A DNA stretch of 64,000 nucleotides from an uncultured Desulfuromonadales bacterium (GTDB lineage: Bacteria; Desulfobacterota; Desulfuromonadia; Geobacterales; CAIOGM01), in assembly GCA_903929485.1 (NCBI GenBank), contig CAIYUY010000021.1:830-64829 (forward strand), given 5' to 3'. The translations under genes and the position numbers were made by a program. The notes beneath the pieces are model-generated. The model searched no databases, was not told the DNA's origin, and worked only from the letters and a program-made list of their open reading frames with translations. Position 1 is the stretch's first letter; every line of letters starts with the position of its first letter. This document shows positions 9,852 through 58,867 of the stretch, in pieces.

Positions 9852-9861
9852 ACCGTCTTTT

Positions 9862-19189: not shown

Positions 19190-19233
19190 CATGTCACGTA
19201 TCATCCTCATTACCGGCGGCGCCTCCCTCCTGA

Positions 19234-19356
19234 CCTGGTGGCTCCGCCGCTGGGATCACCGGCGACATCATCGGCTTCACCTGCGAACTGACCGAAACCG
19301 CCGTCCTGCTCCTCATCGTGGCGCTCTACCGGCAAGGGAGTATCAACCGACCATGA
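19234..19356 (+). pseudogene. cobS: C-terminal ~40-codon tail of cobalamin synthase (CobS-like)
   Basis: My translation in the frame that starts at 19234 (+1 relative to the track ORF at 19191) gives PGGSAAGITGDIIGFTCELTETAVLLLIVALYRQGSINRP*. The G-x-TGD-x-x-G...E...LL tail is CobS-like. Its TGA overlaps the cobC ATG (ATGA). Confidence 0.5.
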
Positions 19357-34709: not shown

Positions 34710-34749
34710 AATCCGGCAGAGACGCAACATCTTGCGTCTCTGCCGGATT
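34710..34749. terminator. Bidirectional hairpin (18-bp perfect stem) between convergent genes
   Basis: AATCCGGCAGAGACGCAA-catc-TTGCGTCTCTGCCGGATT. Confidence 0.7.
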
Positions 34750-34754
34750 TCACT

Positions 34755-36290
34755 TTATTTTTTTTCGACCGCTCCTTCCTTCCCCTCTTCATGCTTAACC
34801 TTGGGAGGCTGGTGGCAGTCACTGCAATTGGTCTTGTAAATCTCGTCGCCGATATTCACCGGGTGGGTAAATGAGGTCGCGGCGGCGCCCGACGGCACGT
34901 TCTCCTGAACCTGACGCATGACCTTATGGCAGAGGTTGCAATCCTTCCGGATGACATGGCCATCGGCGGATTTATGCTTGTCGTCATGACAGCGGAAACA
35001 GCCGGGGAAGTTGAAGTGACCGATGTTGTTGGGATAGGTCTGCCACGAAGCGTTCATCCTCGGAAAGAAGTTGTGCTCGTAGACCTCCTGACATTCGGCG
35101 ATAGCCTTCAGGATCTGCGCTGACTTCTCCTTGGCCAGGACCGGATAGTTCTTGGCGTAGTAATCGGTAATCCCCTTGTCTATGGCCTCCTTGGCCTCCT
35201 TGGTGGTTTTATAGGCGGTATTGGTCATGAGCCCCACGGCGACTTTCTTGAAATAAGGGAGATTGGTGTCGATATTCCCCGCATGCAAGTTGGCGTCGAT
35301 GGCTTGCCCCGGCGACTTGTAGATGTGGGACGGGCGATTATGGCAATCGATGCAATCCATGATCCGCTTCTCGCCGTGCGCCACCTGCTCCGTGGTGAGC
35401 GGCTTCTCGCCGGTCATGTATTCCCGGATCTTGCCATCCTTCCCCTTGACGCTGATATAGGGTATATCCTGGCGGCTTTTATCCCTGGGGATGTAGGAGA
35501 CCTCCTGGCCGATGTGCCAGTGGACCCCCCCCTCCAGCGGCGTCTCCGGAGTGCCGTTGATAAATATGAGCAGGTCTACTTCCCTTGGGGTGTTTTTCTC
35601 GTTGGGAGCGTAGTGATAGAACTTCTTTATCCGCGGTGAAAAGAATTTCTCGGGCCAATGACACCCCTCGCAGGTATCGCTGGAGGGGCGAAGACTCATG
35701 ACCGGGGTCTCGATGGGGCGGGGGAAGGTGTTGAAGAGGACCGCCAGCATCTGCCGGGTACCGGAGACCTTGGCCTTCACATACCATTGGGCGCCGGGGC
35801 CCACATGGCACTCCACGCACTTCACCTTGGCGTGGGGGGAATGCTGCCACGCCACGAATTCCGGCTCCATGGCGACATGGCAGAGTTTACCGCAGAAAGT
35901 CACCGACTCGGTGAATTCATATCCCTTAACCCCGGACAGGGTGATGAGAACGGAAAAAATAAGGGTCGCCAGGGTGAAAAAGACGGCGATCTTCCTTTTT
36001 TTAGGATCGTTGAAGTCCAGCACCGGATACTTGGGCACGGCGCCGGGGTTGGCGCCGCGTAGCCGGTTCCTGGTCAAAAGGATTCCCACGGGGACCAGGA
36101 ACAGACCGGCAACGAGAATGGCTGGGAACAGGAAATAAATGAGGATACCCAGATACGGATTATTAACCTCACGCATCAACTCGATGGCCGAAAAAGAGAC
36201 TATCAGCCCCGTACCCACCAGGATCAGAATGACCCCGAGAATACTGATCACGTTCCAGACATACACCAAGTTGTTTTTCCAAGCCGCCAT
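34755..36290 (-). CDS. ImcH-like inner-membrane multihaem cytochrome c (3 TM, NapC/NirT-like, 7 haem motifs), paralog 1
   Basis: Three N-terminal TM helices. Haem motifs: CGKLCH (CX3CH), CVECH, CEGCH, CIDCH, CFRCH, CNLCH, CSDCH. NapC-like segment CHVAMEPE. Confidence 0.7.
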   Translation of the reverse strand: MAAWKNNLVYVWNVISILGVILILVGTGLIVSFSAIELMREVNNPYLGILIYFLFPAILVAGLFLVPVGILLTRNRLRGANPGAVPKYPVLDFNDPKKRKIAVFFTLATLIFSVLITLSGVKGYEFTESVTFCGKLCHVAMEPEFVAWQHSPHAKVKCVECHVGPGAQWYVKAKVSGTRQMLAVLFNTFPRPIETPVMSLRPSSDTCEGCHWPEKFFSPRIKKFYHYAPNEKNTPREVDLLIFINGTPETPLEGGVHWHIGQEVSYIPRDKSRQDIPYISVKGKDGKIREYMTGEKPLTTEQVAHGEKRIMDCIDCHNRPSHIYKSPGQAIDANLHAGNIDTNLPYFKKVAVGLMTNTAYKTTKEAKEAIDKGITDYYAKNYPVLAKEKSAQILKAIAECQEVYEHNFFPRMNASWQTYPNNIGHFNFPGCFRCHDDKHKSADGHVIRKDCNLCHKVMRQVQENVPSGAAATSFTHPVNIGDEIYKTNCSDCHQPPKVKHEEGKEGAVEKK

Positions 36291-36661
36291 CCGTCACCCC
36301 CTGGAGCAGGTACCGCGCCTGCTCCTGAATTGCCTACCTACGTGCTGGGAGTTACCTTACTACCATGAGCAGATAAATCCAAGCAGAATCAGCAGAGCCG
36401 ATATTATTGTTCGTTTTTGTCGTAATCCCGCAACATGTCAAAGAACTCTAAAAAAATAGGGCACTTATCCCATCGCTGAAATCACGGCTTTCCTTGGCGG
36501 AACTCCCGGACATGCAACCGAGGGAAGAAACTATCCTGAATAGTATCGGGTAGTTCAGTGACACATGGATCCATCGTTTACCTTACTCCGATTCCTTGTA
36601 AAGTAGAGTCAGGAACTGTAAAGAAGCGTAAGGTGCTGATTCCGCTTTTGTTGCAAAATAG

Positions 36662-38191
36662 TTACAATTCGGCCCTCTTTTTCCCCTCTTCATGCTGAAT
36701 CTTGGAAGGCTGGTGACAATCGCTGCAGTTGCTTTTGTAGAGTTCGTCGCCGATATCCACCGGATGGGTGAACGAAGTCACGGCGGCGCCGGCCGGAACA
36801 TTTTCCTGAATCTGCCGCATGACCTTATGGCAAAGGTCACAATCCTTCCGGATGACATGGCCATCGGCGGATTTATGCTTATCGTCATGACAACGGAAGC
36901 AACCGGGGAAGTTGAAGTGACCGATGTTATTTGGATAGGTCCGCCATGAGGCATTCATCCGGGGAAAAAAGTTTGTTTCGTAGAGTTCCTGGCTTTCGGT
37001 AATGGCCTGCTGAATCCGCGCGGACTTCTCCCTGGCCAAGACAGGATAGTTCCTGTCATAGTAATCATGTATCCCACCGGCGATGGCGTCCTTGGCTTCC
37101 CCGGTTGTTTTGTAAGCGGCGCTTGTCATGAGTCCCACGGCAACCTTCTTGAAGTAAGGGAGGGAGGCGTCGATAACTCCCGCGTGCAGGTGGGCGTCGA
37201 CGGCCTCCCCCGGCGACTTGTAGATGTGGGAAGGCCGATTATGGCAGTCGATGCAATCCATGATCCGCTTCTCACCATTGGCCGCTTCACCCTTCCCCAG
37301 CGGTTTCTCACTGGTCAGGTACTCCCGTATTTTACCATCCTTCCCCTTGACGGAGATATAGGGGATGTCCTGACGCTTCTTGTCCCGGGAAATATAGGTA
37401 ACTTCCTGACCGATGTGCCAGTGGACCCCACCCTCCAAGGGCGTCTCCGGAGTGCCGTTAATGAAGATGAGCAAGTCGGTTTCCCGGGGGGTGTTCTTCT
37501 CGTTGGGAGCGTAGTGATAGAACTTCTTCAGGCGGGGTGAAAAGAATTTCTCGGGCCAATGGCACCCCTCGCAGGTATCCCTGGACGGGCGGAGGCTCAT
37601 GACCGGAGTCTCAATGGGGCGAGGAAAGGTATTGAAGAGAACCGCCAGCATCTGCCGGGTTCCCGAAGCCTTGGCTCTCACATACCATTTGACACCGGAG
37701 CCCACGTGGCACTCCACGCACTTCACCTTGGCATGAGGGGAGCGCTGCCACGCCACATACTCCGGTTCCATGGCCACATGACAGAGTTTGCCGCAAAAGA
37801 TCACCGACTCGGTAAATTCATACCCCTTGACCGCGGAGAGGGTGATGAGAACCGATAAGACCAAGGTCGCCACCGTAAAAAAAAGAGCGATCTTCCGTTT
37901 TTTCAGATCGTTGAAGTCCAGAACCGGATACTGGGGCACGCCGTCGGGGTCGATGCTGCGTGACCGGTTCCGGGTCAAAAAAATACCGATGGGCACCAGG
38001 AGCATGCCGAAAACCAGAAGCAGCGGAAAAAAGAAATAGATGAGAATACCCAGATACGGATTATGGACCTCGTGCATCACCTCGATGGCCGAAAATGAAA
38101 CGATCAGACCCGTACCCACCAGGGTCAGTGCGAACCCGACGATACTGATCGGGTTCCAGGCATACACCAAGGTATTTCTCCACGCCGACAT
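36662..38191 (-). CDS. ImcH-like inner-membrane multihaem cytochrome c, paralog 2
   Basis: Collinear with 34755-36290 (roughly four-fifths identical by eye), with the same seven haem motifs including CGKLCH. Confidence 0.7.
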   Translation of the reverse strand: MSAWRNTLVYAWNPISIVGFALTLVGTGLIVSFSAIEVMHEVHNPYLGILIYFFFPLLLVFGMLLVPIGIFLTRNRSRSIDPDGVPQYPVLDFNDLKKRKIALFFTVATLVLSVLITLSAVKGYEFTESVIFCGKLCHVAMEPEYVAWQRSPHAKVKCVECHVGSGVKWYVRAKASGTRQMLAVLFNTFPRPIETPVMSLRPSRDTCEGCHWPEKFFSPRLKKFYHYAPNEKNTPRETDLLIFINGTPETPLEGGVHWHIGQEVTYISRDKKRQDIPYISVKGKDGKIREYLTSEKPLGKGEAANGEKRIMDCIDCHNRPSHIYKSPGEAVDAHLHAGVIDASLPYFKKVAVGLMTSAAYKTTGEAKDAIAGGIHDYYDRNYPVLAREKSARIQQAITESQELYETNFFPRMNASWRTYPNNIGHFNFPGCFRCHDDKHKSADGHVIRKDCDLCHKVMRQIQENVPAGAAVTSFTHPVDIGDELYKSNCSDCHQPSKIQHEEGKKRAEL

Positions 38192-38283
38192 ACGTCCTCC
38201 CGATTACGATAACGTCAAATTATCAAGCATGTTGATAACCATGCGACTGTTGTCCCAAAGGCTAAAACAACCGCCGGGCGCCC

Positions 38284-40107
38284 TTATTGTTCCGGAATTT
38301 CAGATGCCGTATCCAGCCGTTTATGCCAGCGACTCATGACGATGGAAAGGACGGCCGTGGCCATGCCGAAGGAGAGGACACTCCCCACCAGGGGAAGCCC
38401 CGCGACCGCCACCAGGTCATGGAAGAAGACCTTCATTCCGCCGATCATGATGATAAAAATAGCGATATTCCGTTTTTCCTGATCACGTCCCAGGTAACCC
38501 CAGATAACGAGTCCAGCCGCGGCGCCGTTAATGATAATCGACTGCAATGCCGTAACCAGGGGGAGATTGGCGCGCCCGTCCACCCCCGCGAAAAAGAACG
38601 AGGTAAGACCATCCAAAAGATAGAAGCCGCTGATAAGCGCCAGAATCAGCAACAATGCGGCGCTGAAATCCTTTCGATCATAGCGTGCGAAAAAACGGAT
38701 GTCGGCGGGTGGGGCGTTGCTCCTGGCCCATCGGTAATGAAGATAGGCAAGAGCCGCCACGGCGCAACAGGCCGCCAGGGAGGCAAACGGTTCGGTTGTT
38801 TTCTTTGTGGCGAGAATGAACGTCAGATAAACCGTTGCGTGGAACTGAAGCAGATACGATGAGAGACGCGCCCCACCGCTTTTCCAGACTCCCGAGAAGA
38901 TGATGAGGATATAGGCTGCCCCCGAAAGGATCGGCAAGGCGTACAGCGCGCTTCCCGCCACGGTGGGAAGAGAGAGCGCCAGGAGAAGCGCTCCGGCGTT
39001 ACAGATGGCTCCCAGCCCTCCGCGCCCTTGGGATCGCTTTCGAGCCAGGAACCAGACAACGGCGATGTGGAACGCCGACACCCCAAGCCCCAACAGGTTG
39101 ATCAGGTAGTTGCAGCTCCCCAAAACCGTTGTCAGGTACTGAGCGCTTCCAAAAGACCAGAGTACCGTCAGAGTAGGAATTGCAAGATAATACGTATCCA
39201 CCTTCTCGGATTTCCCTGCAATGATTTCCCAGGCGGCGATGACAAGATAGGTAAAGCCGAAGATCCCGACCCCGGCCAGGAACCAGGGGAGCTGCTGTTG
39301 CGCGGCCGCTTTCAACGAGGGATCGGAAAGATAAGGGAGAATAATGCGATAAGTCCACCAAAGAGCGGCATAGACCGTTATGGAGAAAAGCGACCACCGA
39401 ACCCAGGAGCACCGGTCCAGACGGGTAGTAAAATGACCCAGGAGGTTGGCTGCCAGGATGGTGACGATGAGGAATCGGAAATCAGGCGTCGCCTCGTGAA
39501 AGGTGAGAACCACCGCGGTGACGGCCATCCCCACACTCCCGATGCTATGGGGAAGCCTGACCCGGAAGCGATGAGAGGCTGCCGCGGCAACGGCTCCGGT
39601 AAGGATAAGGATGAGATGCGCCGGCAGAAGAGGGAGCAGATGAAGTTTTGTGTTGAGGTTGGTCTCCCCCACAACCATGTACATGAGCAGGATGCCGCAA
39701 ACAGTGAAGAGCGGCGCCAGGCGCCCGGCCTTGAGGTAGCGGAGCCAGCCGATCCCCAGGAGGATGGCGGCATACCCTATCCCCACAAAGGCGCCCAGCT
39801 GTTTGTTGATCAGGCCGTAATCGGTGACCGTACGCAAAATCAGCGCGATTACCATGAGGAAACTTGCGGTAGACGCCTGGGAGAGGATACGGGAAGAAAA
39901 CCCCTCGAAACTGGGGAGGGATGAAAGCTCCGCCTGGGCCGACAGTTCAGCCGCCGTTCCGCTGGGGAGGGGAGGAGCCGACGGCATGGAGACGTCGGTG
40001 GGAGCCGCCGCCTGGGCGGCCAGTTGATCCACCCGCCGGCGCAGCAATGAAACCTCGGCGGCAAGCTGTTCTACCTTAACTTCCAGGGAATTCCGTTCGT
40101 CAGCCAC
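38284..40107 (-). CDS. Polytopic membrane protein, DUF2339-like (N-terminal coiled coil plus many TM helices)
   Basis: LEVKVEQLAAEVSLLRRRVDQLAAQ is followed by about 16 or more hydrophobic segments. GTG start with GGGAGG RBS. Confidence 0.5.
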   Translation of the reverse strand: MADERNSLEVKVEQLAAEVSLLRRRVDQLAAQAAAPTDVSMPSAPPLPSGTAAELSAQAELSSLPSFEGFSSRILSQASTASFLMVIALILRTVTDYGLINKQLGAFVGIGYAAILLGIGWLRYLKAGRLAPLFTVCGILLMYMVVGETNLNTKLHLLPLLPAHLILILTGAVAAAASHRFRVRLPHSIGSVGMAVTAVVLTFHEATPDFRFLIVTILAANLLGHFTTRLDRCSWVRWSLFSITVYAALWWTYRIILPYLSDPSLKAAAQQQLPWFLAGVGIFGFTYLVIAAWEIIAGKSEKVDTYYLAIPTLTVLWSFGSAQYLTTVLGSCNYLINLLGLGVSAFHIAVVWFLARKRSQGRGGLGAICNAGALLLALSLPTVAGSALYALPILSGAAYILIIFSGVWKSGGARLSSYLLQFHATVYLTFILATKKTTEPFASLAACCAVAALAYLHYRWARSNAPPADIRFFARYDRKDFSAALLLILALISGFYLLDGLTSFFFAGVDGRANLPLVTALQSIIINGAAAGLVIWGYLGRDQEKRNIAIFIIMIGGMKVFFHDLVAVAGLPLVGSVLSFGMATAVLSIVMSRWHKRLDTASEIPEQ

Positions 40108-40159
40108 CTGTCACCTCCCGCTCACCGTCACACTCCGGAGAGTCTCGTGAATACATACG

Positions 40160-40186
40160 AAAAAAGGGGCGTGCAGAGCACGCCCC
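40160..40186 (-). terminator. Intrinsic terminator after the NrfD-like gene
   Basis: On the minus strand: GGGGCGTGC-tct-GCACGCCCC followed by TTTTTT. Confidence 0.7.
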
Positions 40187-40209
40187 CCATAAAAAGTTGT
40201 AACACCCTT

Positions 40210-41466
40210 TTAGTGAGATCCCTTGTACTTGAAGACCGGCATCACCTTGTTGATAAAGTAGAAGAGCACGTAGGGGGTTATGATGACCGAAAGCGCTCCC
40301 ATGAGCCCTTCCTTGAAGGTATCCAGGCTGGTGGGGATAATGGGAATGACATAATCCATGAATCCCGCGTAACTGGCCGAAAACGCCTGACCGCCGATGA
40401 CGACGTTCCACCGCATCATGAAGACGCCGAAGAGCATGAGGCTGGAAGCAAGAGCCGCCCGGCGCACCGTGAGGCCCGGGAGCTTGAAGAGAATGAACGG
40501 CAGCAAGTTCCCCAGGCCATACTGCATGACGAAGATCTTGTAGAAATCCCGCTGATAGATGACCTCGCGCAGGATGTCCCACGATTTCACCGCGGTGTAA
40601 CCGCGGAAGATGAGGTCGAGAAGTTCCAGGGTGATGGCTGCAAGGAGGAAGCCGACCAGATACTTGGAGGTGAGTTGAACCTCCTCGATCTCGGCGCTCT
40701 GAAGCTCCTCGTAGGAAGGGAGATCCTTCGCCTTATTGCCCATTTTGCTCAGGATCTTCCTGATCTCCATGGTCACGATGTAGGTGATGATACAAAGGGA
40801 GATCCCGGAAACGACGGCTGAGCAGATAAATATGACCGGCATGAGCGGGGTCATCCAGAGGGCGTTGGCCTTCACCGAGCCGAAAATGAAGCCGGCGTAG
40901 CCATGGAGGAAGCAGGCGACGGGAATACCGATGCCGGCCAGCTTGCTCACCGCTTTTTCGTCTTTTTCCAGGGCATGTTCGCTGACGTCGTAGCACCCCA
41001 GGGTAAGCGCCGAAAAGAGGAGATAGCGGAAGTTTCCGATGAGGCCGCGATTGGTATCATCCTTCAGCTCCAAGGCGGTGGCCACGAAATGGGGACGGTA
41101 GACGAACCAAAGCTCCGAGGCGACGATCATCCCGTAGGTGGAAAAAACAATACCGAAGGCGGCGATGGCCGAGGTGAAATGCGGCGTCATCATGACATGG
41201 ATGCCGCGCAACGGCTGCTGAAGATGCAGCATCAGCGGCATCATCGCCACCGGGAGCAGGGCGAAGGAGAAGACCAGGGAAAAACGGGCGATATCCTTCA
41301 ACTGCTTGACGCCGAAAACATGGTAGAGGGAGGAGAGGACGAAAGCCCCCGCCACGAGACCGGTCATGAAAGGGTACATGACGATCTGAATCGACCAGTA
41401 GATATACTCGTTGGGATAACAGAAAAATTCCTTGAGGGTCCAGGCCTCTCCGTGAATTTCCATCAT
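40210..41466 (-). CDS. NrfD/PsrC-family quinol-interacting integral membrane subunit
   Basis: 418 aa, about 10 TM helices, and sits immediately after a NrfC-like FeS gene (2-nt gap). Confidence 0.8.
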   Translation of the reverse strand: MMEIHGEAWTLKEFFCYPNEYIYWSIQIVMYPFMTGLVAGAFVLSSLYHVFGVKQLKDIARFSLVFSFALLPVAMMPLMLHLQQPLRGIHVMMTPHFTSAIAAFGIVFSTYGMIVASELWFVYRPHFVATALELKDDTNRGLIGNFRYLLFSALTLGCYDVSEHALEKDEKAVSKLAGIGIPVACFLHGYAGFIFGSVKANALWMTPLMPVIFICSAVVSGISLCIITYIVTMEIRKILSKMGNKAKDLPSYEELQSAEIEEVQLTSKYLVGFLLAAITLELLDLIFRGYTAVKSWDILREVIYQRDFYKIFVMQYGLGNLLPFILFKLPGLTVRRAALASSLMLFGVFMMRWNVVIGGQAFSASYAGFMDYVIPIIPTSLDTFKEGLMGALSVIITPYVLFYFINKVMPVFKYKGSH

Positions 41467-41468
41467 AA

Positions 41469-42284
41469 CTATCTTACCTCCCTGTCAAGCGCCAGATAAT
41501 AGACCTGTGGCTTGGTGCCGTATTCCGACTTGAGCACCCCGACCCTGCCGGTCATGATGACTTTGGTCACCGGATCATTGGGATCTTTCAGATTGCCTAT
41601 CTGCCGGGCGCCGAAGGGACAGGACTGAACGCAGGCGGTCTTCATCCCCTTGGAAATCCGGTGGTAGCAGAAGTTACACTTTTCAGCCACCTTGTAGACA
41701 GGATGGAAGAACCGTACGCCGTAGGGACAGCCCATGACGCAGTAACCGCAACCGATACACCAGGAACGGTCCACCAGCACGACACCGTCGCCGGTCTTGT
41801 AGGTGGCGCCCACCGGACAGACCTGCACGCAGGGAGGATTATCGCACTGATTGCAAAGCTTGGGGACGAAGAAAGCCTTTGAGATATCCTCGTCCTTGAT
41901 CTCCACATGCTTGTCGGCGCCCACTTCGATCTTGGCGGTGGTAAAACCATCACGCCCCCCCTTGGGGGAATCGGCGTTGATGCCGAAGCCGGGGTTTGAC
42001 ATATTCCCCTCAACCCGCATCTTGCCATCCTTGCAGATGACATAACGCTCCACCCAGGTGCGGGTGATGTCGGCGTCATAGGGAACTTCGTTCTCCAGCT
42101 TGCACGCCTTGACACAGAAACCGCACCCCACGCACTTCTGCGTGTCCGCGAGGAAAACCCATCTCGTATTCCCCCCATTAGCGGCGAACAGCGACTTCGG
42201 GTTGATGAATTCCAGGGCCGAAGCAGGGATGGCGGCCCCGGCGATGATGGTAATGGTCTGTTTCAGAAAATCTCTTCTCTCCAT
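41469..42284 (-). CDS. Tat-exported 4Fe-4S ferredoxin subunit (NrfC/HybA/DmsB family)
   Basis: Twin-arginine signal MERRDFLK. Cys clusters CVGCGFCVKAC, CNQCDNPPCVQVCP, CIGCGYCVMGCP and CNFC...C..CP. Confidence 0.85.
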   Translation of the reverse strand: MERRDFLKQTITIIAGAAIPASALEFINPKSLFAANGGNTRWVFLADTQKCVGCGFCVKACKLENEVPYDADITRTWVERYVICKDGKMRVEGNMSNPGFGINADSPKGGRDGFTTAKIEVGADKHVEIKDEDISKAFFVPKLCNQCDNPPCVQVCPVGATYKTGDGVVLVDRSWCIGCGYCVMGCPYGVRFFHPVYKVAEKCNFCYHRISKGMKTACVQSCPFGARQIGNLKDPNDPVTKVIMTGRVGVLKSEYGTKPQVYYLALDREVR

Positions 42285-42342
42285 ATGATCCTGCCTCCGT
42301 AGAGTAATCTGTTCGGAACTGCCGCTTCGTCAGCCGTTACCC

Positions 42343-42894
42343 CTACTTCTTGGCGCCCCCCGCGCTTTTTCCCTCGGGAGCTCCCGCTTCAAGCTTGTAG
42401 GTGGGGAAACGCTGACCGCTTTTCTTCAAAGCCCCCAGGTTGGGGTTATGGGGATCGTGGCAGGTAACGCACTCCACATTGGGATCCTGATGCGTGGCGG
42501 GGTTGATACCGCGAATCTTGCCGCGATCACTGTTCGGGTATTTCAGTATGGCGTGGCAGCGGAGACAGAGGAGCCGGTTGATATCGATGGGAAGCTTGGC
42601 GATCTTGCCGGGGTGATCCATCCCGGGACCATGACAGTCTTCGCAGGGGATGATCGCATGGGGAGTATTCCGGATGTAGGTGAAATTTTTCGAGTGGCAA
42701 TCCTTACAGTACGCGGAGCCCTGGAACTTCACCTTGATATCTTTCCAGTACTGCTCGTTGTTGGGATTATGCCAGCCGTACATGTACCCCGCCTCACCGA
42801 TGCCGAATTCCTTCGGCACATAAAACGCCCTGAAAATCAGGATGCCCGCTACGAGCGCAAGCGCTACAAACAATGGTCGCCACACATGACTCAC
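42343..42894 (-). CDS. Membrane-anchored tetrahaem cytochrome c
   Basis: An N-terminal TM helix and 4 CXXCH (CKDCH, CEDCH, CLRCH, CVTCH). GTG start with AGGAGG 8 nt upstream. Confidence 0.8.
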   Translation of the reverse strand: MSHVWRPLFVALALVAGILIFRAFYVPKEFGIGEAGYMYGWHNPNNEQYWKDIKVKFQGSAYCKDCHSKNFTYIRNTPHAIIPCEDCHGPGMDHPGKIAKLPIDINRLLCLRCHAILKYPNSDRGKIRGINPATHQDPNVECVTCHDPHNPNLGALKKSGQRFPTYKLEAGAPEGKSAGGAKK

Positions 42895-43050
42895 TGGATG
42901 CTACCTCCTTGTATGGATTGATAAAATAATGTTTCCGATTATGGACTGATTCCCGGTCATCATCGCGATGGCATACCAGGGGAAAAGGCGTCGAAACTTA
43001 GCACGGATTCAGCACCATTGTCCAGCTTTTAAACGCTAACAAAAACGTTG

Positions 43051-44904
43051 TTAATGGGCGCCGCTCGCCAGGAAGGCGTAGATCATGAGCAGCAGCAGCG
43101 TGATCCCGATAAAAAGCGCGGTAAAACCGAACCCCTTGAACAGAAAATCGTACAGGATACCGCTGCTCTTTTCCACCTTGAACTGGTCGGAGATCCCCTG
43201 CTGTTCATAACGCGCCCACTGGTCCCCTCGCTCCTCCATGAACTCCTCCTTGGTCATCTGACCGTTGAAGATTACGAAATCCATGGGGAATTTTTCCGGG
43301 CGACCGTGAGTATTAAAAAAGTGAACCGTGAAGATGAAGCCCGTGGCCAGGAGCGCCTCGTCGGAATGGATGATGGTGGCCACGTTGAACGCCCACCCCG
43401 GAAGGAAGATCCCGAAGAATTCCGGAAACCAGAGCATGAGACCCGAGCCGCCGATGGCGAACATCCCCCAGAATACCGCCAGGAAGTCGAATTTCTCCCA
43501 GTAGGTCCACCGATCGAAGGATGGTTTCGGCCCCCGGAAGAGAAACCACCGGACCATCCCCGTCACATCCTTCAGATCCCTCAGATTGGGGCAGAGGGAG
43601 TCTGGTCCGAACAACCGCTGAAGGAAATTTCCCGGAATATCCTTTCTGATAAACAAAAAATGAATGCTCATGAGTATGGCTGCCGCAAAATAGAGAAAGG
43701 TGATGACGGCGCAGATCCGGTGGATGTGACCCGCCGCCGCTGTCCCTCCATACAGACGCATGAGCGACATGGCCCACGCCTGATCACTGAATTTGAGAGG
43801 GAGCCCGGTGAGCGCGAGTCCCAGGAAGCTGGTGATGACCATGACATGAAGGGCGATATGTTGAGCGTTAAACCGTCGGTAATGTTTATGAGCATCGGGA
43901 ATTGCACGGTGAAGGTGCTCGGCCATGAGGAGCTCTTCCCTCCGCCGGTTTTCCACGAAACCGCGGAACATCCAGAGAATGGTATGCAGCCAGAAGACGG
44001 CGAAGGTGCTGGTCAATAGCCCGGTCATGGCGATAAAGGTCCAGAAGAGGATCGGGTAGTTTTTCCGATCCGTATGTTCGCCATGGGGATAGTATGCGGC
44101 GAAAAGCGCGGTGGCCTTCTTGTGGCACTTGGCGCAGGTCGCCACCAGGTTCCTGGAATTAACGGTGGAAGCGGGATCCTTGGCCGGAAGAATGTTATGC
44201 GCCGAGTGGCAGTCGGCGCACCCCGCCACCCTTTCCGGGAAACCGAGGCGGTAGTTCTTCCCGTGGTAGCTGGCCATGTAGCTCTCCACGGCCACGTTGG
44301 TGACGTTGTTGCGCTTCATCATCTCTTCGTTGCTGTGGCATTTCATGCAGACCCTGGTATGGAATTCGCGGACATCATGAGACGCCCCATTCCCCACGGC
44401 CTTGATATCATGCAAGTTGTGGCAATCATGACAGGCGGCCGAGTCCTGAACCCCCCTGGCCACCGCCTTGCCATGAACGGAATTCCGGTAGCCGGCTTCC
44501 TTGTCATGGCACTGGATGCATTTGGCGATGACGATCTTCTTGTCCCCTTTCCAGTACTGATGCGTATGGACATCCGTATGGCAGTCGGCGCAGGTGACCC
44601 CTTTCCGGGTATGGACACTGAGATAATGCTCAGCGGTCTGCTTCTTATGACAACGGTCGCAGGCAACCTTTTGAACCTTGATCTCCTTGCGCATATGCTT
44701 GGCAAGGTCGGTGATATCCAGATGGCAGCCGGTGCAGGCGTTCTTGCCGTGCACCGACGCGGCAAAAGCCGTCATGGAGATCTTGTCGCCGTGGCACCCG
44801 AGACAGGTAGCCGGATCGATGGCCATCCCATGTTCGGCCCCCGCGGGGATGGTCATAAGCAGAAGAAAGAGTACGAGTACAACGTTGAACCAGTTCCGCC
44901 GCAT
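43051..44904 (-). CDS. CbcL-like fusion: periplasmic 9-haem cytochrome c plus HydC/FdnI-type di-haem cytochrome b membrane domain
   Basis: A signal peptide and 9 CXXCH (CLGCH, CTGCH, CDRCH, CADCH, CIQCH, CHDCH, CMKCH, CADCH, CAKCH). These are followed by TM helices with conserved His (AQHIALHV, AAGHIHRICAV, IIHSDEA, FTVHFFNTH). Confidence 0.75.
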   Translation of the reverse strand: MRRNWFNVVLVLFLLLMTIPAGAEHGMAIDPATCLGCHGDKISMTAFAASVHGKNACTGCHLDITDLAKHMRKEIKVQKVACDRCHKKQTAEHYLSVHTRKGVTCADCHTDVHTHQYWKGDKKIVIAKCIQCHDKEAGYRNSVHGKAVARGVQDSAACHDCHNLHDIKAVGNGASHDVREFHTRVCMKCHSNEEMMKRNNVTNVAVESYMASYHGKNYRLGFPERVAGCADCHSAHNILPAKDPASTVNSRNLVATCAKCHKKATALFAAYYPHGEHTDRKNYPILFWTFIAMTGLLTSTFAVFWLHTILWMFRGFVENRRREELLMAEHLHRAIPDAHKHYRRFNAQHIALHVMVITSFLGLALTGLPLKFSDQAWAMSLMRLYGGTAAAGHIHRICAVITFLYFAAAILMSIHFLFIRKDIPGNFLQRLFGPDSLCPNLRDLKDVTGMVRWFLFRGPKPSFDRWTYWEKFDFLAVFWGMFAIGGSGLMLWFPEFFGIFLPGWAFNVATIIHSDEALLATGFIFTVHFFNTHGRPEKFPMDFVIFNGQMTKEEFMEERGDQWARYEQQGISDQFKVEKSSGILYDFLFKGFGFTALFIGITLLLLMIYAFLASGAH

Positions 44905-45183: not shown

Positions 45184-45720
45184 TTATTTCGCATGGGCCT
45201 TGTCATGGCAGATATTACACAACGTAATGAACCGTAGTTCCTCGCCGTTGATGTGCTTCCCGATATTCCGCCGAAAGTAAAGAAGTATCCTGTCCCTGAT
45301 GCTGAGCTTCATCCTGCGAATTTCGTTGGCCGAATTCCACCGGAACGCGGCGTCTCTGTCCTCCGTTGCGTCCGGAAGAATATAATCGTCACTCTTCATG
45401 CCGGATACATCAAAACCGAAATCTTCTTCTTTCGCCATTTCCTTTGCGGTAGCGCCACTGACGATACTCCAACCGAATTCGACCCGGAGTTCGCGAAGAC
45501 GGCGCGCCCACTCGCTGATACCCGCAACGACCATGATTTCTTCCCCGCCGATAATCACCAGTGGGTATTTGCGAAAGTAATGGAGAATTCTGTCGCGAGC
45601 CGCGGTAACGCACTCTCCGGTAATGAGTGAGCTTCCAAGGTCGCGGAGCAGGTTATGGACCGGCACGAGAGCAAGGACCGATGCGGTCGTGATAAACCTT
45701 TTCCTCGGTGATATTCGCAA
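45184..45720 (-). CDS. Hypothetical protein with duplicated wHTH-like segment and an HNH-like C-terminal stub (possibly a remnant)
   Basis: RDRILHYF...EWARRLRELRVEFGWSI and a second, truncated RDRILLYFRRNIGKHINGEEL. It ends TLCNICHDKAHAK. TTG start; no clear N-terminus. Confidence 0.3.
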   Translation of the reverse strand: MRISPRKRFITTASVLALVPVHNLLRDLGSSLITGECVTAARDRILHYFRKYPLVIIGGEEIMVVAGISEWARRLRELRVEFGWSIVSGATAKEMAKEEDFGFDVSGMKSDDYILPDATEDRDAAFRWNSANEIRRMKLSIRDRILLYFRRNIGKHINGEELRFITLCNICHDKAHAK

Positions 45721-45989: not shown

Positions 45990-47060
45990 GTGCATAAAAA
46001 ACTTTTCATACCCGGTCCCATTGAGATCGCCCCGGAGATTCTTCAGGCCATGGCGACCCCCATGATCGGCCACCGGATGCCCGAATACGCACAACTTCAC
46101 GGGTCGGTTACCTCCGGCCTGAAGAAGGTCATGGGAACTGGAAACCGTGTATTTCTCGCCACCTCCAGCGCCTTCGGCGTCATGGAAGGTGCGGTACGAA
46201 ATCTCGTGAAGGGGCGCTGCGTCAATTTCTGCAACGGCGCCTTTTCCGATAAGTGGCATGACGTGACCCGTCGGTGCGGCAAGGAAGCCGACGCGGTCAA
46301 GGTCCCCTGGGGCAAGCCGATCACCCCCGAACTTGTGGAGCAGGCCTTGGCCACCGGTCGCTACGATTCATTTACCCTCATCCATAACGAAACCTCCACG
46401 GGAGTCATGTCCCCCCTGGGGGAAATCATGGCGGTGGCGGGGCGCTACCCGGACGTGATTTCCATCATTGACACCGTCTCATCCATGAGCGCCCTCCCGA
46501 TCCCGGTGGACGAACTGGGGATCGATGTCTGCATATTCGGCGTGCAGAAGGCCTTTGCGCTTCCGCCGGGTCTGGCGATCTTCAGCGCCTCGGAGAAGTC
46601 ACTGGAGCGAGCGAGGAGCGTGGAGGGACGGGGATATTATTTCGATTTTCTCGAATTCGCCCTTCACGACGACAAGAATAATACTCCCTCCACCCCTTGC
46701 ATCTCCCTGGTCTACGCCCTGGCGAAGCAACTGGAGCGGTTTGCCGCCGAGGGGCTCGAGCAGCGGTGGAACCGCCATCGGGAACTGGCGACTCAGGTCC
46801 GCCAATGGGCGACGGGGCGCGGACTTCACTTTTTCGTGGATGAACCGTACCGCTCCGTCACCCTCACCTGTATCGCAAATAATAAAGGAATTGACTTAAA
46901 GCAGTTGAAAGGGGAGCTCGGGGTACGGGGCTATGCCTTTGATGACGGTTACGGCAAGCTGAAAGGGGAGACCTTCCGGATCGCCCACATGGGCGACCTG
47001 CTCCCCAATGAACTGAAGGAATTTATCGCGGTGATTGACGAACTGACGCCGGGTTTCTGA
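45990..47060 (+). CDS. Class-V aminotransferase (serine-pyruvate / alanine-glyoxylate / phosphoserine aminotransferase type)
   Basis: LFIPGPIEI..., HNETSTGV, and FGVQKAF as the PLP-lysine region. GTG start. Confidence 0.8.
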   Translation: MHKKLFIPGPIEIAPEILQAMATPMIGHRMPEYAQLHGSVTSGLKKVMGTGNRVFLATSSAFGVMEGAVRNLVKGRCVNFCNGAFSDKWHDVTRRCGKEADAVKVPWGKPITPELVEQALATGRYDSFTLIHNETSTGVMSPLGEIMAVAGRYPDVISIIDTVSSMSALPIPVDELGIDVCIFGVQKAFALPPGLAIFSASEKSLERARSVEGRGYYFDFLEFALHDDKNNTPSTPCISLVYALAKQLERFAAEGLEQRWNRHRELATQVRQWATGRGLHFFVDEPYRSVTLTCIANNKGIDLKQLKGELGVRGYAFDDGYGKLKGETFRIAHMGDLLPNELKEFIAVIDELTPGF

Positions 47061-47088
47061 TCTCGGCCTGAAAAAAAGGAGAAGATGG

Positions 47089-47259
47089 ATGAAATGTCCC
47101 AACTGCGGCAACCGGGAGTCGGTGGAGATCGACACGCACTCCGACGGCTTCACCTCCCAAGAGTGCCCCGTGAAGGAATGCGGCGTCTGCGGTCTGGTCT
47201 GGCGGGTAAAGATGGTGGATGACAAGATGGAAATCGATACGATAAAACCTGCACCTTAA
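47089..47259 (+). CDS. Small zinc-ribbon protein (56 aa)
   Basis: My translation gives MKCPNCGNRESVEIDTHSDGFTSQECPVKECGVCGLVWRVKMVDDKMEIDTIKPAP*. AAGGAGAAG RBS; a hairpin follows. Confidence 0.55.
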   Translation: MKCPNCGNRESVEIDTHSDGFTSQECPVKECGVCGLVWRVKMVDDKMEIDTIKPAP

Positions 47260-47301
47260 GTAAAAGATGCAGGTTTTATCAGTTTTCAGACCGGATGGGG
47301 G

Positions 47302-47460
47302 TCAAGCCAACTCGAAGACATCTTTGCCGGCCCCGCAGAGGGGACAGACCCACCCTTCGGGAATCTCTTCAAACGGTGTCCCGGCCGGAACACCGTTATC
47401 GGGGTCGCCTGTTTCAGGGTCGTAGACATACTGACAGATGGTGCAGATCCAACGTTCCAT
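47302..47460 (-). CDS. Rubredoxin
   Basis: My translation gives [52 protein letters not shown]. The track ORF 47286-47522 is in the wrong frame. Confidence 0.95.
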
Positions 47461-47682
47461 GAATTTTCTCCTTTTTTGTGGGTTTCGATGAAGGGGAGCT
47501 CCAAAAGAGTCCCGGTGGACATGAGAAAGAGTATATAACAGGTTACCGTCGCGCTGTCAAATCGAAGGGTATCACGGATCCGAAGCGACTGCCGCCTGAC
47601 GGCAGGGATCGCAGGTACGGCAACATGGAGTGTAGTCCGGCAGTGGTGTTATCAAACGCATGTTAAAGGAGACACAACGACT

Positions 47683-49539
47683 ATGGGTTACGAAGTCAAG
47701 AACGATCAACTGAAGAAATGGGTGGCGGAAGTCGCGGCGCTGTGCGAGCCGAACAACATTCACTGGTGCGACGGTTCCCAGGAAGAGTACGACAGCCTCT
47801 GCGACCTGATGGTCCAGGGGGGAACATTCCAGAAGCTTAGTCAGGAAAAACGTCCCAACAGCTACCTGGCCTGGTCCGATCCCGGCGACGTGGCAAGGGT
47901 CGAAGACCGGACCTTCATCTGCAGTATCGCCAAGGATGACGCCGGCCCCACCAATAACTGGATGAATCCCAAGGAGATGAAAGAGATTCTCACCGGGATG
48001 TTCCAAGGGTGCATGAAGGGGCGCACCATGTACGTCATCCCCTTCAGCATGGGCCCCCTGGGCTCCCCCATCGCCAAGATCGGGGTAGAGATTTCCGATT
48101 CCCCCTATGTTGTCGTGAACATGAAGATCATGACCCGCATGGGCAAGGCGGTCATCGACATCCTGGGCGACGGCGAGTTCGTCCCCTGCCTTCATTCCGT
48201 GGGTGCTCCGCTTCTCCCCGGCCAGAAAGATGTCGCTTGGCCCTGCAACAAGGAAAAGTACATCGTCCACTTCCCCGAGGAGCGCTCCATCTGGTCCTAC
48301 GGCAGCGGTTACGGCGGGAACGCCCTCCTGGGCAAAAAATGTCTGGCTCTGCGCATCGCCTCCAAGATCGCCAAGGACGAGGGGTGGCTGGCCGAGCATA
48401 TGCTGATCCTGGGAATCGAATCTCCGGAAGGAGAAAAGACCTACGTGGGAGCAGCCTTCCCCAGCGCCTGCGGCAAGACCAACTTGGCCATGCTGGTGCC
48501 GCCCGAATCATTTGACAAGAAGGGTTGGAAGATCTACACGGTAGGGGACGACATCGCCTGGATCAAACCGGGGCCCGATGGCCAACTTTACGCCATTAAT
48601 CCGGAATACGGCTTTTTCGGCGTGGCGCCGGGAACCTCGGACAAGACCAACCCCAACGCCATGGCCTCCTGCACTGAGAACTCCATCTTCACCAACGTGG
48701 CGCTGACCCCTGACGGCGACGTCTGGTGGGAAGGGATGACCGACGACAAACCGGCTAACCTCACCGACTGGCAGGGAAAAGCCTGGACCCCGGAGTGCGG
48801 CAGGAACGCCGCCCATCCCAACTCCCGCTTCACTTCACCGGCGTCACAGTGCCCTACCATCGATCCTGAGTGGGAAAATCCCAAAGGTGTTCCCATGAGC
48901 GCCTTCATCTTTGGCGGCCGGCGCAACAAGGTCATCCCTCTCGTCTACCAGGCCTTCAACTGGAACTTCGGGGTGTATCTTGCAGCCACCATGGGCTCCG
49001 AGACCACCGCCGCCGCCGTGGGCGCCGTTGGCAACGTCCGTCGTGACCCCTTCGCCATGCTTCCCTTTACCGGGTATCATGTGGGAGATTACTTCTCTCA
49101 TTGGCTCCAAGTGGGACGCAACACCCCCAAACCTCCTCGCATCTTCAGCGTCAACTGGTTCCGCAAGGACGAAAACGGCAAGTTCATGTGGCCCGGTTAC
49201 GGCGAGAACATGCGGATACTCAAATGGATCGTGGATCGGGTCAACGGCCATGCCGCCGCCATCGAATCCCCCCTGGGGTGGATGCCCCGCTACGAGGATC
49301 TTGATTGGGAAGGGCTGGAAAGCATCACGCCGGAGAAATTCTCCGACCTGACCTCGGTGGATCGTGATCTCTGGATGGACGAGGTCGTCTCCCACGAGGA
49401 GCTCTTCATCAAGCTCTACGACCGGCTCCCCAAGGAGTTCCTCCATATGCGGCAGCTTATCATCTCCAGCCTCTGGCGTTCGCCGGAGCATTGGGAGCAG
49501 TTTCACCGCACCGCCGAAGGGTTCGGCTTCAACGACTGA
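47683..49539 (+). CDS. pckG: Phosphoenolpyruvate carboxykinase (GTP)
   Basis: 618 aa. Contains GTP-PEPCK signatures ([23 protein letters not shown], and the NSRFT-containing NSRFTSPA). Confidence 0.95.
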
Positions 49540-53611: not shown

Positions 53612-56600
53612 TTACTGGGTCACGCCGGTGAAGACGTTGGAACCGTTGACGCCATTGGCGGCGCCGTACCTCACCGTGACGGTGAACTTCGTCAGCGACG
53701 GACATTTGGCGAAGTTTACCTGGATGTTTTGCGTGACGACGCCGGGACCGGCGATGGAGCCATAGGTAAGAGGCAACAGGGAATCGGTGGTGACTGTCGG
53801 CTTGCACGCGCCGCTGGTGGAAAGCGTCACCGAGTTCAGCGTCACCCCGTCGGCTGCGGCGTTCCCCGTGTTTTGGATACTGATCGGCCAGCTCCGGATG
53901 CCGCCGATGATCCCGCTTTTGTTTCCACTGACGATACTCGCGCTCAAGTTGGCCGGCGCCAGGAGCAGCATAGCGCCGTTGATTCCCACCGGCCCGTTCA
54001 TGACAACCGAGGTAGTGGCGGCGGCGGGATTGGTAATGAGTCCGGTCCCGCCGGTGAGAGTCCAGGCGGAAAATACGTACCCCGCGGCGGGGGTGGCCAG
54101 GATGGTTGCGTATTCCCCGGCGTTATACCATTGCTGGGGAGGAAAGGCGGCGCCGTGGCCGTCGGTGGTGGTGGTCAGCTGATACTGGGTGGCGAAGGCG
54201 GCCGTGTAGGAGGCGCCGGCGACCGGAGCGGTTACGACATGGGTCACGGCCCCGCCGTCGGACCAGTTGGTAAAGAGGTACCGAACCCCGGTGATCCCCG
54301 GTTGAGTCGGGGGAGCGGTAACGGTGTGGAGCGACCCCGGAACCCAGGCGAAGGCGTGGGGGGCGACGTAGCTGTTCACACCGTCGGAGTCGGTGACGGT
54401 GAAATTAAGACCGGAAGGGTTCGTCTGAATCACCACCGAAACCTGGTTTTTGGGGGTGACGATGAGATTTTGGGTCGTCTGCCCGGCGGCGTTGTAGTAG
54501 CCGGCGACTCCGGCCTGGTTGGCGGAGATGGCGCAGGCGCCGGGGGTTAAACCGGTAACGGTGGAACCGTTCGTCCCGCTGACGCTGCACGTAGTGGGGG
54601 TGAGGCTGCTGAAGAGCACGGGATTGCCGGATCTTCCGCCGGTGGCGGTGACAGTTGCCGTCCCGTCGGTTTCCAGGTTCGGGGCGGCGCCGAAGGTGAT
54701 GGTCTGATTTCCCAGGGCGACGGTGAACGACTGCGCAGCGGCTGGGGCGGCGCTGAAGTTGCTGTTTCCCGGCTGAGCGGCGGTGATCGTGCAGATCCCC
54801 CCTTTGACCCCGGTGGCGGTGGAGTTGTTGACGCCGCTCAGGGTGCAAACATCAGGGGTGGTGGTGGCGTAGGTAACGACAAGCCCCGAACCGGCGGAGG
54901 CGGAAACCGTACCGTTCCCTCCAACTACCAGAGTGGGGGAAGGGCCGAAGGTGATGATCTGGCTCCCCTGACCAATGGAGAAGCCCTGCGTCAGCGTCGC
55001 CGCGTTGTAGTTGGCGCTTGCCGCCTGGTCGGCCGTGATGACGCAATTGGCGACGCCGGCTTTCAGGCCGGTGACAGTGGCGCCGCTGACGGCGCAATCG
55101 GCGGTGGAGACGGCGCCAAAGGTAAAGCTCCCCGATCCGCCGGTGGCGCTGACGATGCCGGAACCGCCCACCGTTACGGGTAGTGAGTTGAAGGCGATGA
55201 TCGGATCGGCCTTGTTCACCAGGACGCTTACGGTGAATGAAACGGCGGAATAATCGATCGTGTTCGTCGGGGTGAAAGTGACATTTTGCGAACTCGTCCC
55301 GGCGTTGGGCGTGGTGAGTGGCGTGGTGAAGGTGAAGGCGCCGGCCGGGACGGATACCCCGCCGATGAGGGAGGAATCGGCCAGGGTCCGGCCGTAGGTG
55401 ATGGCGGAGGCGGTCGGCCAGACGCTTACGCCGGCAGCAGCCCTGGTAATGGTCGTGATCGCCGCCGGGACACTATCGGCTGAAACGTTGTAATTCAGGT
55501 CAGAGGCCCTGGCGGCGGTGACCGAACAGCCGCCGGTCACATGGATGATCGCGCCGACGCCGGTGGCGAAGTCCACCGTGCAGGCGGTTCCGTTAAATGT
55601 GTAGGAATAAAGTCCCGTACCGCTGCCGCCGGTGGCGATGGCGGTGAAGGTATCGCCGACAGCCGCGGTTGCGGGAACTCCGGTCAAGGTCACCGTCGAT
55701 TGAGCGGCCTTGTTCAGGGTGACCGGATAAGAGGCGCCGGTTGTGGAGGCGTTGTAGTTATCGTCGGCATCCCTCGTCGCCGTCAGGTTGCAGCTACCGC
55801 CGACGCTGGTAACCGACAGGGTGGCGCCGGAGACGGCGCAGCCGGTGGAACCGGTAGCTGAGAAACTGTAGCCGCCGGTTCCGTTGCCGCCGCCGGCGGT
55901 GACGGTTCCGGTCGTCCCATAGATGACGGAAACCGGTCCGGTGACCGTTACCGCCGTCGTCTGGGTAGCCTTGGCAATGGTGAAGGCCGTGACGATGGAA
56001 GATGCCGAATTATAGTTGGTGTCGCTCGTCACGGTGGCGGTTGCCGTGTAGGTTCCCGCCGTTGTGGGCTTGGTGGAGCTCGCAGTATAGGTCGTCGCGC
56101 CGGTTCCCAGATAGCTGAACGACAAGGAACCGGTGGAATTACCCTTGGTGGTTTCCGTGGCGCCCGGCCCCTGAGCCGACCCGCTATACGTGTATATCCC
56201 CGGCGTCACCGTCACGACAGGGGTAGCCTTGGCGATGGTGAAGGCCGTGGCGCTGGAGGAGCCGGCGTTGTAGTTGGTGTCGGTCGTCACGGTGGCGGTT
56301 GCGGTATAGGTTCCCGCCGTTGTGGGTTTGGTGGAGCTGGCCGTATAGCTCGTCGCGCCGGTCCCCAGATAGCTGAAGGTCAAGGAGCCGGTGGAGCCCC
56401 CCTTGGTGGTTTCCGTGGCGCCGGGCCCCTGAGCCGAACCACTGTAGGTATACGTCCCCGGCGTAACCGTCACGACAGGGGTCCCCTTGCCGACGATAAA
56501 GGTCTGCGGCGCCTGGGGCGCGGGTAAGTAACTGCTGCTACCGGCCTGATCGGCGTTGATGGTGCAGTTGCCGGGGGCGACAAAGGTCAGGAGGCCGCCA

Positions 56601-58609: not shown

Positions 58610-58867
58610 CGGCACTCCTTGTGTCTTGGTTCTTTTTTCTCCCTGACTCTGCACGAACCCGGCCACAACGAGAAAGGCTATGCCAACTGGGACGCGGTGT
58701 GTATACACAAAGATTGCAGGGAAAGTGGTAGCAACAGAAGAGGAGTAACCGGAATGATTACGTTTTAGCGTTTGGCGACCGGAGCGCCCGCAACGTTAAC
58801 AATACACACAATAAGTTAAAAATAATAATGAGAGGAGGAGTCATGACGCAACAAGCCGCAATTGTGA

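Follow-up and report, generated by a model that had tools for sequence, protein, structure and literature searches.

We analysed a 64,000-nucleotide stretch of DNA from an uncultured Desulfuromonadales bacterium (GenBank assembly GCA_903929485.1, contig CAIYUY010000021.1, positions 830–64,829; hereafter the window), which matches contigs of several metagenome assemblies and carries a compact block of genes for predicted inner-membrane electron-transfer proteins. The block occupies positions 34755–44904 and comprises seven intact open reading frames (ORFs), all on the minus strand and all seven with GGAGG-type ribosome-binding sites. Read along that strand, they are an orthologue of cbcL, three genes resembling cbcS, cbcT and cbcU, a gene of the DUF2339 family and two copies of imcH. 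A preliminary description of this DNA had placed seven minus-strand genes in this interval and had counted 27 haem-c sites. The gene coordinates agree with ours, and so does the total, with nine motifs in the CbcL-type protein, four in the CbcS-like protein and seven in each ImcH. The figure of 27 is correct because the atypical CXXXCH motif of each ImcH is counted; the seven haem motifs that had been credited to each of these two proteins likewise include it, and CXXCH alone gives six. There are no other multihaem genes elsewhere in the 64-kb window. Our observations are of gene content, motifs, homology and synteny.

The first gene (43051–44904) encodes a 617-residue protein in which nine CXXCH motifs, between residues 34 and 257, follow a signal-peptide-like N-terminus and precede a C-terminal multi-transmembrane region, predicted to be a b-type domain of the FdnI/HydC-like kind. 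A hydropathy scan finds five to six hydrophobic segments after residue 285. This predicted layout is that of Geobacter sulfurreducens CbcL (Cbc1, GSU0274; earlier CbcY), in which a signal peptide and nine CXXCH motifs are followed by a b-type membrane domain fused at the C-terminus. The protein is 72–76% identical to full-length homologues across the Geobacteraceae (Geotalea uraniireducens, Geobacter sp. DSM 9736, Geomonas, Pelotalea and others), including 72% to the protein of G. uraniireducens Rf4. One homologue carries the source label cbcY, a name formerly given to a 'cytochrome c, 9 haem-binding sites, and cytochrome b' protein (PMC7894505), and some have a precomputed Ni_hydr_CYTB (PF01292) match. 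In our alignment A2, all 13 homologues, that of Rf4 among them, keep V204-A205-V206 and F525 unchanged, and the transmembrane histidines H349, H353, H395, H513, H528 and H533 are likewise invariant. V205 and F525 of CbcL have been reported as conserved, potential-gating residues (bioRxiv 10.1101/2022.08.31.506072); which valine of our protein is equivalent to V205 hinges on a one-residue offset that is not fixed. An alignment in the supplement of PMC9129911 sets a G. uraniireducens sequence, which may be the Rf4 protein used here, beside G. sulfurreducens CbcL. Other Geobacteraceae orthologues and the architecture support the assignment of the product as a CbcL-type fusion. Its gene shares one block with imcH and cbcSTU, whereas the CbcL gene is unlinked in both G. 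sulfurreducens and G. uraniireducens Rf4.

The next three genes appear to encode one module. The CbcS-like protein (42343–42894, 183 residues) is a membrane-anchored tetrahaem cytochrome with a hydrophobic segment at residues 1–29, four CXXCH motifs and ten histidines, enough for four bis-His haems; it is 56% identical to the product of an Rf4 gene neighbouring imcH. The CbcT-like protein (41469–42284, 271 residues) begins MERRDFLK, with RRDFLK as a twin-arginine translocation (Tat) motif, and 16 of its 17 cysteines fall into four clusters, as expected of an exported protein with four [4Fe-4S] centres. It matches Pfam Fer4_11 (E=3e-25), and its best solved relative in a PDB sequence search is of the PsrB/NrfC type (2vpw_B, E=2e-45). 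The CbcU-like protein (40210–41466, 418 residues), a predicted integral membrane, quinol-interacting subunit, matches Pfam NrfD at E=2.9e-32 (113 bits against a cut-off of 25.8) and is 69–77% identical to its Geobacter, Geomonas and Rf4 counterparts; identities to the Rf4 and Geomonas counterparts are 48–57% for the CbcS-like and 59–70% for the CbcT-like protein. Published Cbc4 consists of a tetrahaem CbcS with a 29-residue anchor, a CbcT with four [4Fe-4S] clusters and a membrane subunit, CbcU (bioRxiv 10.1101/2025.04.14.648717). Our three genes share subunit types and gene order with cbcSTU of that system (GSU0068-0070), a likeness judged from architecture, and their sequences support a Cbc4 (CbcSTU) architecture; here they are flanked by cbcL and the DUF2339-family gene.

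The preliminary description had noted a clean terminator after the NrfD-like gene, and its stem, T-run and folding energy confirm this. The element (40164–40188, read 40188 to 40164 on the minus strand) has an 11-bp stem with eight G-C pairs followed by a run of T; its folding energy is −22.6 kcal/mol (z = −3.6), and none of 200 shuffled sequences folds as well. It closes the cbcSTU unit.

Beyond the terminator lies a gene for a 607-residue polytopic membrane protein (38284–40107). It had been described as DUF2339-like, a label that stands for the family and fails for the protein by itself: our protein scores 8.9 bits against Pfam DUF2339 (PF10101), below the cut-off of 33.6, and its full-length Rf4 homologue (35% identity, E=5e-114) passes at 50 bits. 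Most of its 35 database relatives carry PF10101, and on sequence it is best called a divergent member of the DUF2339 family. It has an N-terminal coiled coil with about 16 predicted helices beyond, and its AlphaFold2 (AF2) model is all-helical (pLDDT 79). A Foldseek search with that model against the PDB found only generic helical-repeat and designed proteins with TM-scores of 0.3 or less, matches too poor to point to a function. The homologue alignment contains no invariant histidine or cysteine, so the protein is unlikely to bind haem or metal.

The last two genes encode ImcH-type cytochromes of 509 residues (copy 1, 36662–38191) and 511 residues (copy 2, 34755–36290). Each has three hydrophobic segments in a hydropathy scan (approximately residues 13–40, 42–76 and 98–125), a CGKLCH (CXXXCH) motif at residue 133 and CXXCH motifs at residues 158, 207, 313, 431, 451 and 489. 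ImcH of G. sulfurreducens (GSU3259) has the same three N-terminal transmembrane helices, NapC/NirT-like region, CX3CH motif and six CXXCH motifs, and the atypical CX3CH motif is a described hallmark of ImcH (PMC4251993, PMC6295460). Both copies match Pfam Cytochrom_NNT (NapC/NirT-like) above cut-off (E=3-4e-8), and copy 1 matches NrfH in a PDB sequence search (E=6e-4). Over approximately 485 residues, copy 1 is 56% and copy 2 is 57% identical to GSU3259 (AAR36650, 'Cytochrome c-type protein ImcH' in UniProt). Published identities within the Geobacter/Desulfuromonas/Syntrophus ImcH clade range from 53.6 to 100% (PMC6295460), and both copies therefore fall inside it. All seven haem motifs are invariant in our ImcH alignment A1 (13 sequences), and so are E128, H138, K174 and Q180, which match E127, H137, K173 and Q179 of GSU3259, the residues proposed for the quinol/haem-1 pocket (bioRxiv 10.1101/2023.05.03.539133). 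The equivalent of Y188 is a phenylalanine in both copies, at a position that varies between tyrosine and phenylalanine among homologues.

These comparisons bear out the earlier recognition of two ImcH-type cytochromes. More broadly, the families first proposed for the block (CbcL-type fusion, tetrahaem/iron–sulphur/NrfD module and ImcH pair) stand, the best full-length relatives of the fusion and of both ImcH copies being CbcL and ImcH orthologues. PDB sequence searches with the fusion, ImcH copy 1, CbcS-like and CbcT-like proteins returned distant matches only, with no solved structure of ImcH, CbcL or Cbc4 among them, and the search with the CbcU-like protein returned no match.

Beyond the second imcH, in the interval between convergent genes, is a perfect palindrome with an 18-bp stem (34710–34749), likely a bidirectional terminator that ends imcH copy 2. 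On the other side of the block, a class-V aminotransferase gene (45990–47060, plus strand) lies outside the system and serves as a synteny anchor; the same gene marks the imcH site of G. sulfurreducens and G. uraniireducens. The interval 47060–47683, between the aminotransferase and the phosphoenolpyruvate carboxykinase (PEPCK) genes, contains a minus-strand gene for rubredoxin and a short ORF for a zinc-ribbon protein. Both hold the same positions in Rf4 and in related contigs, and this interval is a stable synteny anchor of the locus. Directly upstream of cbcL, a 178-residue ORF (45184–45720, minus strand) has no Pfam match and ends in a C-x2-C-H-containing tail, LCNICHDKAHAK. No counterpart was found by tblastn in the three collinear contigs described below (L089–L091), and in L090 and L091 there is no called gene between the aminotransferase and cbcL; the ORF looks like a lineage-specific insertion.

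Elsewhere, the metagenome contigs L089, L090 and L091, from related lineages, are collinear with the window, running aminotransferase, cbcL, cbcS, cbcT, cbcU, DUF2339-family gene and imcH between the same flanks, with a single imcH whose product is 76–79% identical to ours. The arrangement was surveyed more widely by scanning one genome per GTDB species with the ImcH alignment. This gave at least 600 matches, from which 80 loci were kept, an arbitrary subset dominated by metagenome-assembled genomes (MAGs); the counts of loci that follow are among the matches listed. Sixteen loci encode an ImcH at least 51% identical, and ten of them have a CbcL match within 10 kb, either over its full length or as a fragment. 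Six of the sixteen, all Geobacter-type MAGs (L006, L008, L010, L011, L013 and L015), have all six families within 10 kb, with cbcUTS and the DUF2339-family gene usually on the opposite strand. G. uraniireducens Rf4 has the same site (CP000698.1, approximately 1.011–1.033 Mb), recognizable from its PEPCK (83% identity), rubredoxin and aminotransferase (73%) genes, and it has DUF2339, cbcU, cbcT, cbcS and imcH genes there. It differs from the window, where everything is on one strand and imcH is doubled, in that its DUF2339 and cbcUTS genes are divergent from a single imcH and its cbcL is approximately 845 kb from imcH.

G. sulfurreducens has the same aminotransferase (77% identical) and then imcH alone. 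Its imcH (GSU3259), cbcL (GSU0274) and cbcSTU (GSU0068-70) are dispersed (bioRxiv 10.1101/2021.04.15.440034), and the statement in the preliminary description that these loci are unlinked in that species agrees with the literature and with the imcH locus that we inspected. In 'Desulfuromonas soudanensis' WTL, the ImcH and CbcL homologues are DSOUD_0207 and DSOUD_0214, seven locus tags apart (PMC4914508). They are thus linked within a few genes, as here. The published region, DSOUD_0207-0214, differs in having LuxI/LuxR genes, and its ImcH homologue is 39% identical to GSU3259.

The preliminary description had taken the block to be exceptional unless the same arrangement proved to be the common layout of described genomes, and largely it did: the layout recurs in the three collinear loci, in the six Geobacter-type MAGs and in part in Rf4. 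Since collinear order and gene set are found in many public genomes, this is a conserved layout and the block is not novel. On these sequence comparisons the layout is probably ancestral and looks inherited, not newly assembled, and G. sulfurreducens looks like the dispersed exception. The further claim that the block unites all known architecture classes of inner-membrane quinol-oxidizing gates is overstated, the 64-kb window containing no Cbc3 (CbcVWX)-, Cbc5 (CbcBA)- or Cbc6-like genes.

The DUF2339 family is part of this conservation. It is present in the cluster at 10 of the 16 Desulfuromonadota-type loci among the matches listed, and the gene has been retained through at least four gene orders, adjoining either imcH or cbcU. 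Retention through rearrangement is the pattern expected of a functional partner. We regard the protein as a conserved accessory of the cluster, for which a scaffold or assembly role is a guess. In G. sulfurreducens, the locus tag after cbcU (GSU0070) is GSU0071, a 'hypothetical protein' that is strongly down in gsu1771 and csrA mutants (PMC10599522, PMC11934962). GSU0071 may be the DUF2339 counterpart in that species, and we name it as a lead.

What is specific to this window is the tandem duplication of imcH, the only unusual part of the block. The duplicated ImcH of the preliminary description is indeed a tandem pair, 82% identical in amino-acid sequence; G. sulfurreducens, by contrast, has one monocistronic imcH beside the aminotransferase. 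A second imcH is found at none of the 80 loci among the matches listed, and Desulfuromonadia inner-membrane cytochromes are typically single-copy (PMC11492766). The two copies are each other's closest relatives in our tree and branch inside a clade of single-copy orthologues, to which copy 1 is 73–78% and copy 2 is 76–81% identical. Copy 1, on the longer branch, is the faster-evolving paralogue and copy 2 the more conservative. Synonymous divergence (dS) between them is 0.79 and the ratio of nonsynonymous to synonymous divergence (dN/dS) is 0.13 (0.09 in the haem domain and 0.31 in the transmembrane region), from which we conclude that both copies are old and under purifying selection.

The association of a CbcL-like fusion with imcH reaches well beyond the Desulfuromonadota. 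Of the 53 loci from other phyla with enough upstream sequence to be informative, 26 (among the matches listed) have a full-length multihaem and b-type fusion directly upstream of the imcH homologue and on the same strand. Acidobacteriota, Ignavibacteriota, Bacteroidota, Zixibacteria and Omnitrophota are represented, and the MAGs in question include L021–L083. Over the whole 80-locus sample there are 30 adjacent CbcL-like/imcH pairs, with a median gap of 89 bp. The fusions of the other phyla differ from ours: they are 28–43% identical to it, carry 8–19 haems and are without DUF2339, and among the matches listed a Cbc4-like module accompanies them only in L041. An association of imcH with cytochrome genes was already noted by Zhong and Shi, who wrote that it is 'often associated with' them (PMC6295460).

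Two of these arrangements deserve description. Locus L041, from a 'Ca. Dadabacteria' MAG (CAWDVW010000007.1, 4862–11494), encodes on one strand an 8-haem CbcS-like protein, an iron–sulphur protein, an NrfD protein, an 11-haem CbcL-like fusion and an ImcH homologue; it is an independent 'supercluster' in another phylum. At L022, L023, L034, L042, L049 and L077 (Acidobacteriota, Ignavibacteriota and Bacteroidota), a gene for a 19-haem cytochrome and then one for a separate b-type subunit, 43–51% identical to the C-terminal domain of CbcL, lie upstream of imcH. A 13-haem CbcL-like fusion is also present at most of these loci (not at L077), so split and fused bc modules coexist beside imcH.

Taken together, the block is, we consider, probably a Geobacterales-like chromosomal respiratory cluster whose products are inner-membrane oxidoreductases of three kinds, each carrying electrons from menaquinol to periplasmic cytochromes, the step with which extracellular electron transfer begins. 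By analogy with the characterized proteins, the CbcL-type fusion would oxidize menaquinol through a three-helix di-haem b membrane domain and pass electrons along its nine c-haems to periplasmic triheme cytochromes; CbcL in Geobacter is the route for low-potential acceptors (PMC5322298; bioRxiv 10.1101/2022.08.31.506072). In the Cbc4-type module, electrons from menaquinol would enter at the NrfD-like CbcU and move through the Tat-exported, four-cluster iron–sulphur protein CbcT to the anchored tetrahaem CbcS. ImcH would oxidize menaquinol at a periplasm-facing, NrfH-like site beside the CX3CH haem, and would do so here as two diverged tandem paralogues that appear to be selectively maintained. 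ImcH in Geobacter is the route for acceptors above approximately −0.1 V (PMC4251993; bioRxiv 10.1101/2023.05.03.539133).

Several points weigh against this assignment or temper it. The weak match of the b-type domain of the fusion (residues 343–529) to the formate dehydrogenase gamma model TIGR01583 (E=1.3e-4) is below cut-off. The putative CbcL and Cbc4 assignments were reached through other Geobacteraceae orthologues and architecture, not by alignment to GSU0274 and GSU0068-70. The physiological role of Cbc4 is undefined even in G. sulfurreducens, where a cbcS deletion strain grows as wild type (bioRxiv 10.1101/2025.04.14.648717). What we say of quinol oxidation, of potential windows, of partner cytochromes and of transcription units is all read across from homologues. 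A sigma-70 promoter scan was at chance level (8 sites against 5.6 ± 2.1), which makes the transcription units proposed below provisional. Finally, relatives of the CbcL/MtoC/MtrH kind also occur in iron oxidizers (PMC6295460), and sequence therefore does not dictate which way the electrons run.

The intergenic gaps (approximate, each ORF start being taken as the first start codon) are 156 bp between cbcL and cbcS, 58 bp between cbcS and cbcT, 2 bp between cbcT and cbcU, 102 bp between cbcU and the DUF2339-family gene, 92 bp between the latter and imcH copy 1, and 371 bp between the two imcH copies. Transcription probably proceeds in four units: cbcL by itself; cbcSTU, as far as the terminator; the DUF2339-family gene with or without imcH copy 1; and imcH copy 2, whose promoter region is probably the 371-bp spacer (36291–36661, no Rfam match). 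No match to the sigma-54 −24/−12 pattern was found in the intergenic regions of the cluster. Cyclic-dinucleotide riboswitches are common near Geobacter cytochrome genes; neither these nor any other Rfam elements were found in or around the cluster. The preliminary description had entertained a different organization, in which all seven genes would make up one co-regulated operon, or their products would assemble as a single quinol-oxidase supercomplex. All seven genes do lie on one strand, in an order that is kept in L089–L091; the gap from the CbcL-like gene to imcH is 30 bp or less in 11 of the 30 adjacent pairs among the matches listed, which suggests co-transcription there; and gsu0068 and gsu3259 are both down in the G. 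sulfurreducens gsu1771 mutant (PMC10599522). However, in the window a strong terminator stands between cbcU and the DUF2339-family gene, and gaps of 156 and 371 bp interrupt the series. Moreover, the same genes are on opposite strands in the six Geobacter-type MAGs and in Rf4, where cbcL is also remote from imcH. The imcH of G. sulfurreducens is transcribed by itself, and mutants of imcH and of cbcL differ in phenotype there, each phenotype being specific to potential (PMC4251993, PMC5322298). The terminator, the 371-bp gap and the opposite-strand layouts elsewhere thus disfavour a co-regulated unit or supercomplex, which we judge unlikely.

Electrons could in principle run through the cluster the other way, from outside the cell into the quinone pool, or both ways. 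CbcL/MtoC/MtrH-family proteins are found in Fe(II) oxidizers, and sequence does not separate quinol oxidases from quinone reductases (PMC6295460). Against this, quinol oxidation is the only activity with which ImcH has been connected to date (PMC6295460), the cluster has its closest relatives in metal-reducing Geobacteraceae, and the window has no mtoAB- or mtrAB-type genes; we hold reverse flow to be distinctly improbable. The notion that the block is a horizontally acquired respiratory island, which would accord with the common view that multihaem cytochrome genes often move horizontally (PMC11492766) and with the small ORF just upstream of cbcL that relatives lack, is very improbable. The G+C content is uniform over the cluster and its flanks (0.53–0.57), which counts against a recent island, and the ORFs of the window show no boundary marked by an integrase, a transposase or a tRNA. 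Related contigs keep both flanks, Rf4 shares the one with the aminotransferase, rubredoxin and PEPCK genes, G. sulfurreducens shares the aminotransferase, and the ImcH tree mirrors lineage relationships; on the flat G+C content and the conserved flanks we rejected an island. It is scarcely credible, lastly, that the proteins serve a periplasmic reductase for nitrogen or sulphur oxyanions (Nrf, Hao, Psr or Ttr type) instead of extracellular electron transfer. PsrB is the closest solved relative of the CbcT-like protein, and there are weak hidden Markov model (HMM) matches to NrfH, NrfC, NrfD, TtrB and DsrO/P, but all these HMM matches are far below curated cut-offs, and it is ImcH and CbcL orthologues that match best over the full length. 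A system of this type was rejected on its sub-threshold HMM matches and on the absence from the 64 kb of any catalytic subunit (NrfA, HAO or a molybdopterin protein).

Other features of the window are independent of the cluster. An atoC RNA motif (Rfam RF01733) lies at 5112–5198 on the plus strand, scoring 67.6 bits against a gathering score of 50; this cis-regulatory element was described in Deltaproteobacteria and would fit Desulfuromonadota. Also on the plus strand, just upstream of the ORF at 19191–19955, positions 18898–19097 match the cobalamin riboswitch (Rfam RF00174, 81 bits, E=2e-18). The plus-strand ORF 9844–10713 contains, at 9858–9972, a perfect 42-bp tandem repeat (2.7 copies, 100% match) that encodes the repeated peptide SVLSVLSGQASGF at the N-terminus of its 289-residue product. 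At 53612–58708 on the minus strand is a gene for a 1698-residue protein that has a bacterial Ig-like (Big_3_5) domain and probably belongs to the large surface or adhesin-like proteins; long internal tandem repeats of its DNA measure 258 bp (2.1 copies) and 147 bp (3.4 copies).

The gene families of the cluster are known and it brings no new mechanism; its value is comparative. Could the linkage of these genes be functional, beyond co-inheritance? Three propositions are involved. The pair formed by a CbcL-type bc fusion and the imcH that follows it, often with almost no gap, may be an ancient unit of two genes common to several phyla; the cofactor-less DUF2339 protein of Desulfuromonadota may work specifically with ImcH or with Cbc4, for instance as scaffold, as assembly factor or as regulator; and each of the two ImcH paralogues of this lineage may have taken over part of the high-potential window. 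Jointly these are doubtful, and we put them forward tentatively; if they are true, G. sulfurreducens would be a derived, scattered exception that hid these partnerships.

As it stands, many genomes have inherited the three best-known quinol exits of Geobacter as a set at one chromosomal site, and their dispersal in G. sulfurreducens is not the general rule. The DUF2339-family protein and the Cbc4 module are leads on the partners of ImcH, a question that dates from the discovery of that cytochrome (PMC4251993). The block is also a compact marker of extracellular electron transfer capacity for metagenome annotation, and its maintained ImcH duplication is a natural experiment on the tuning of potential windows.

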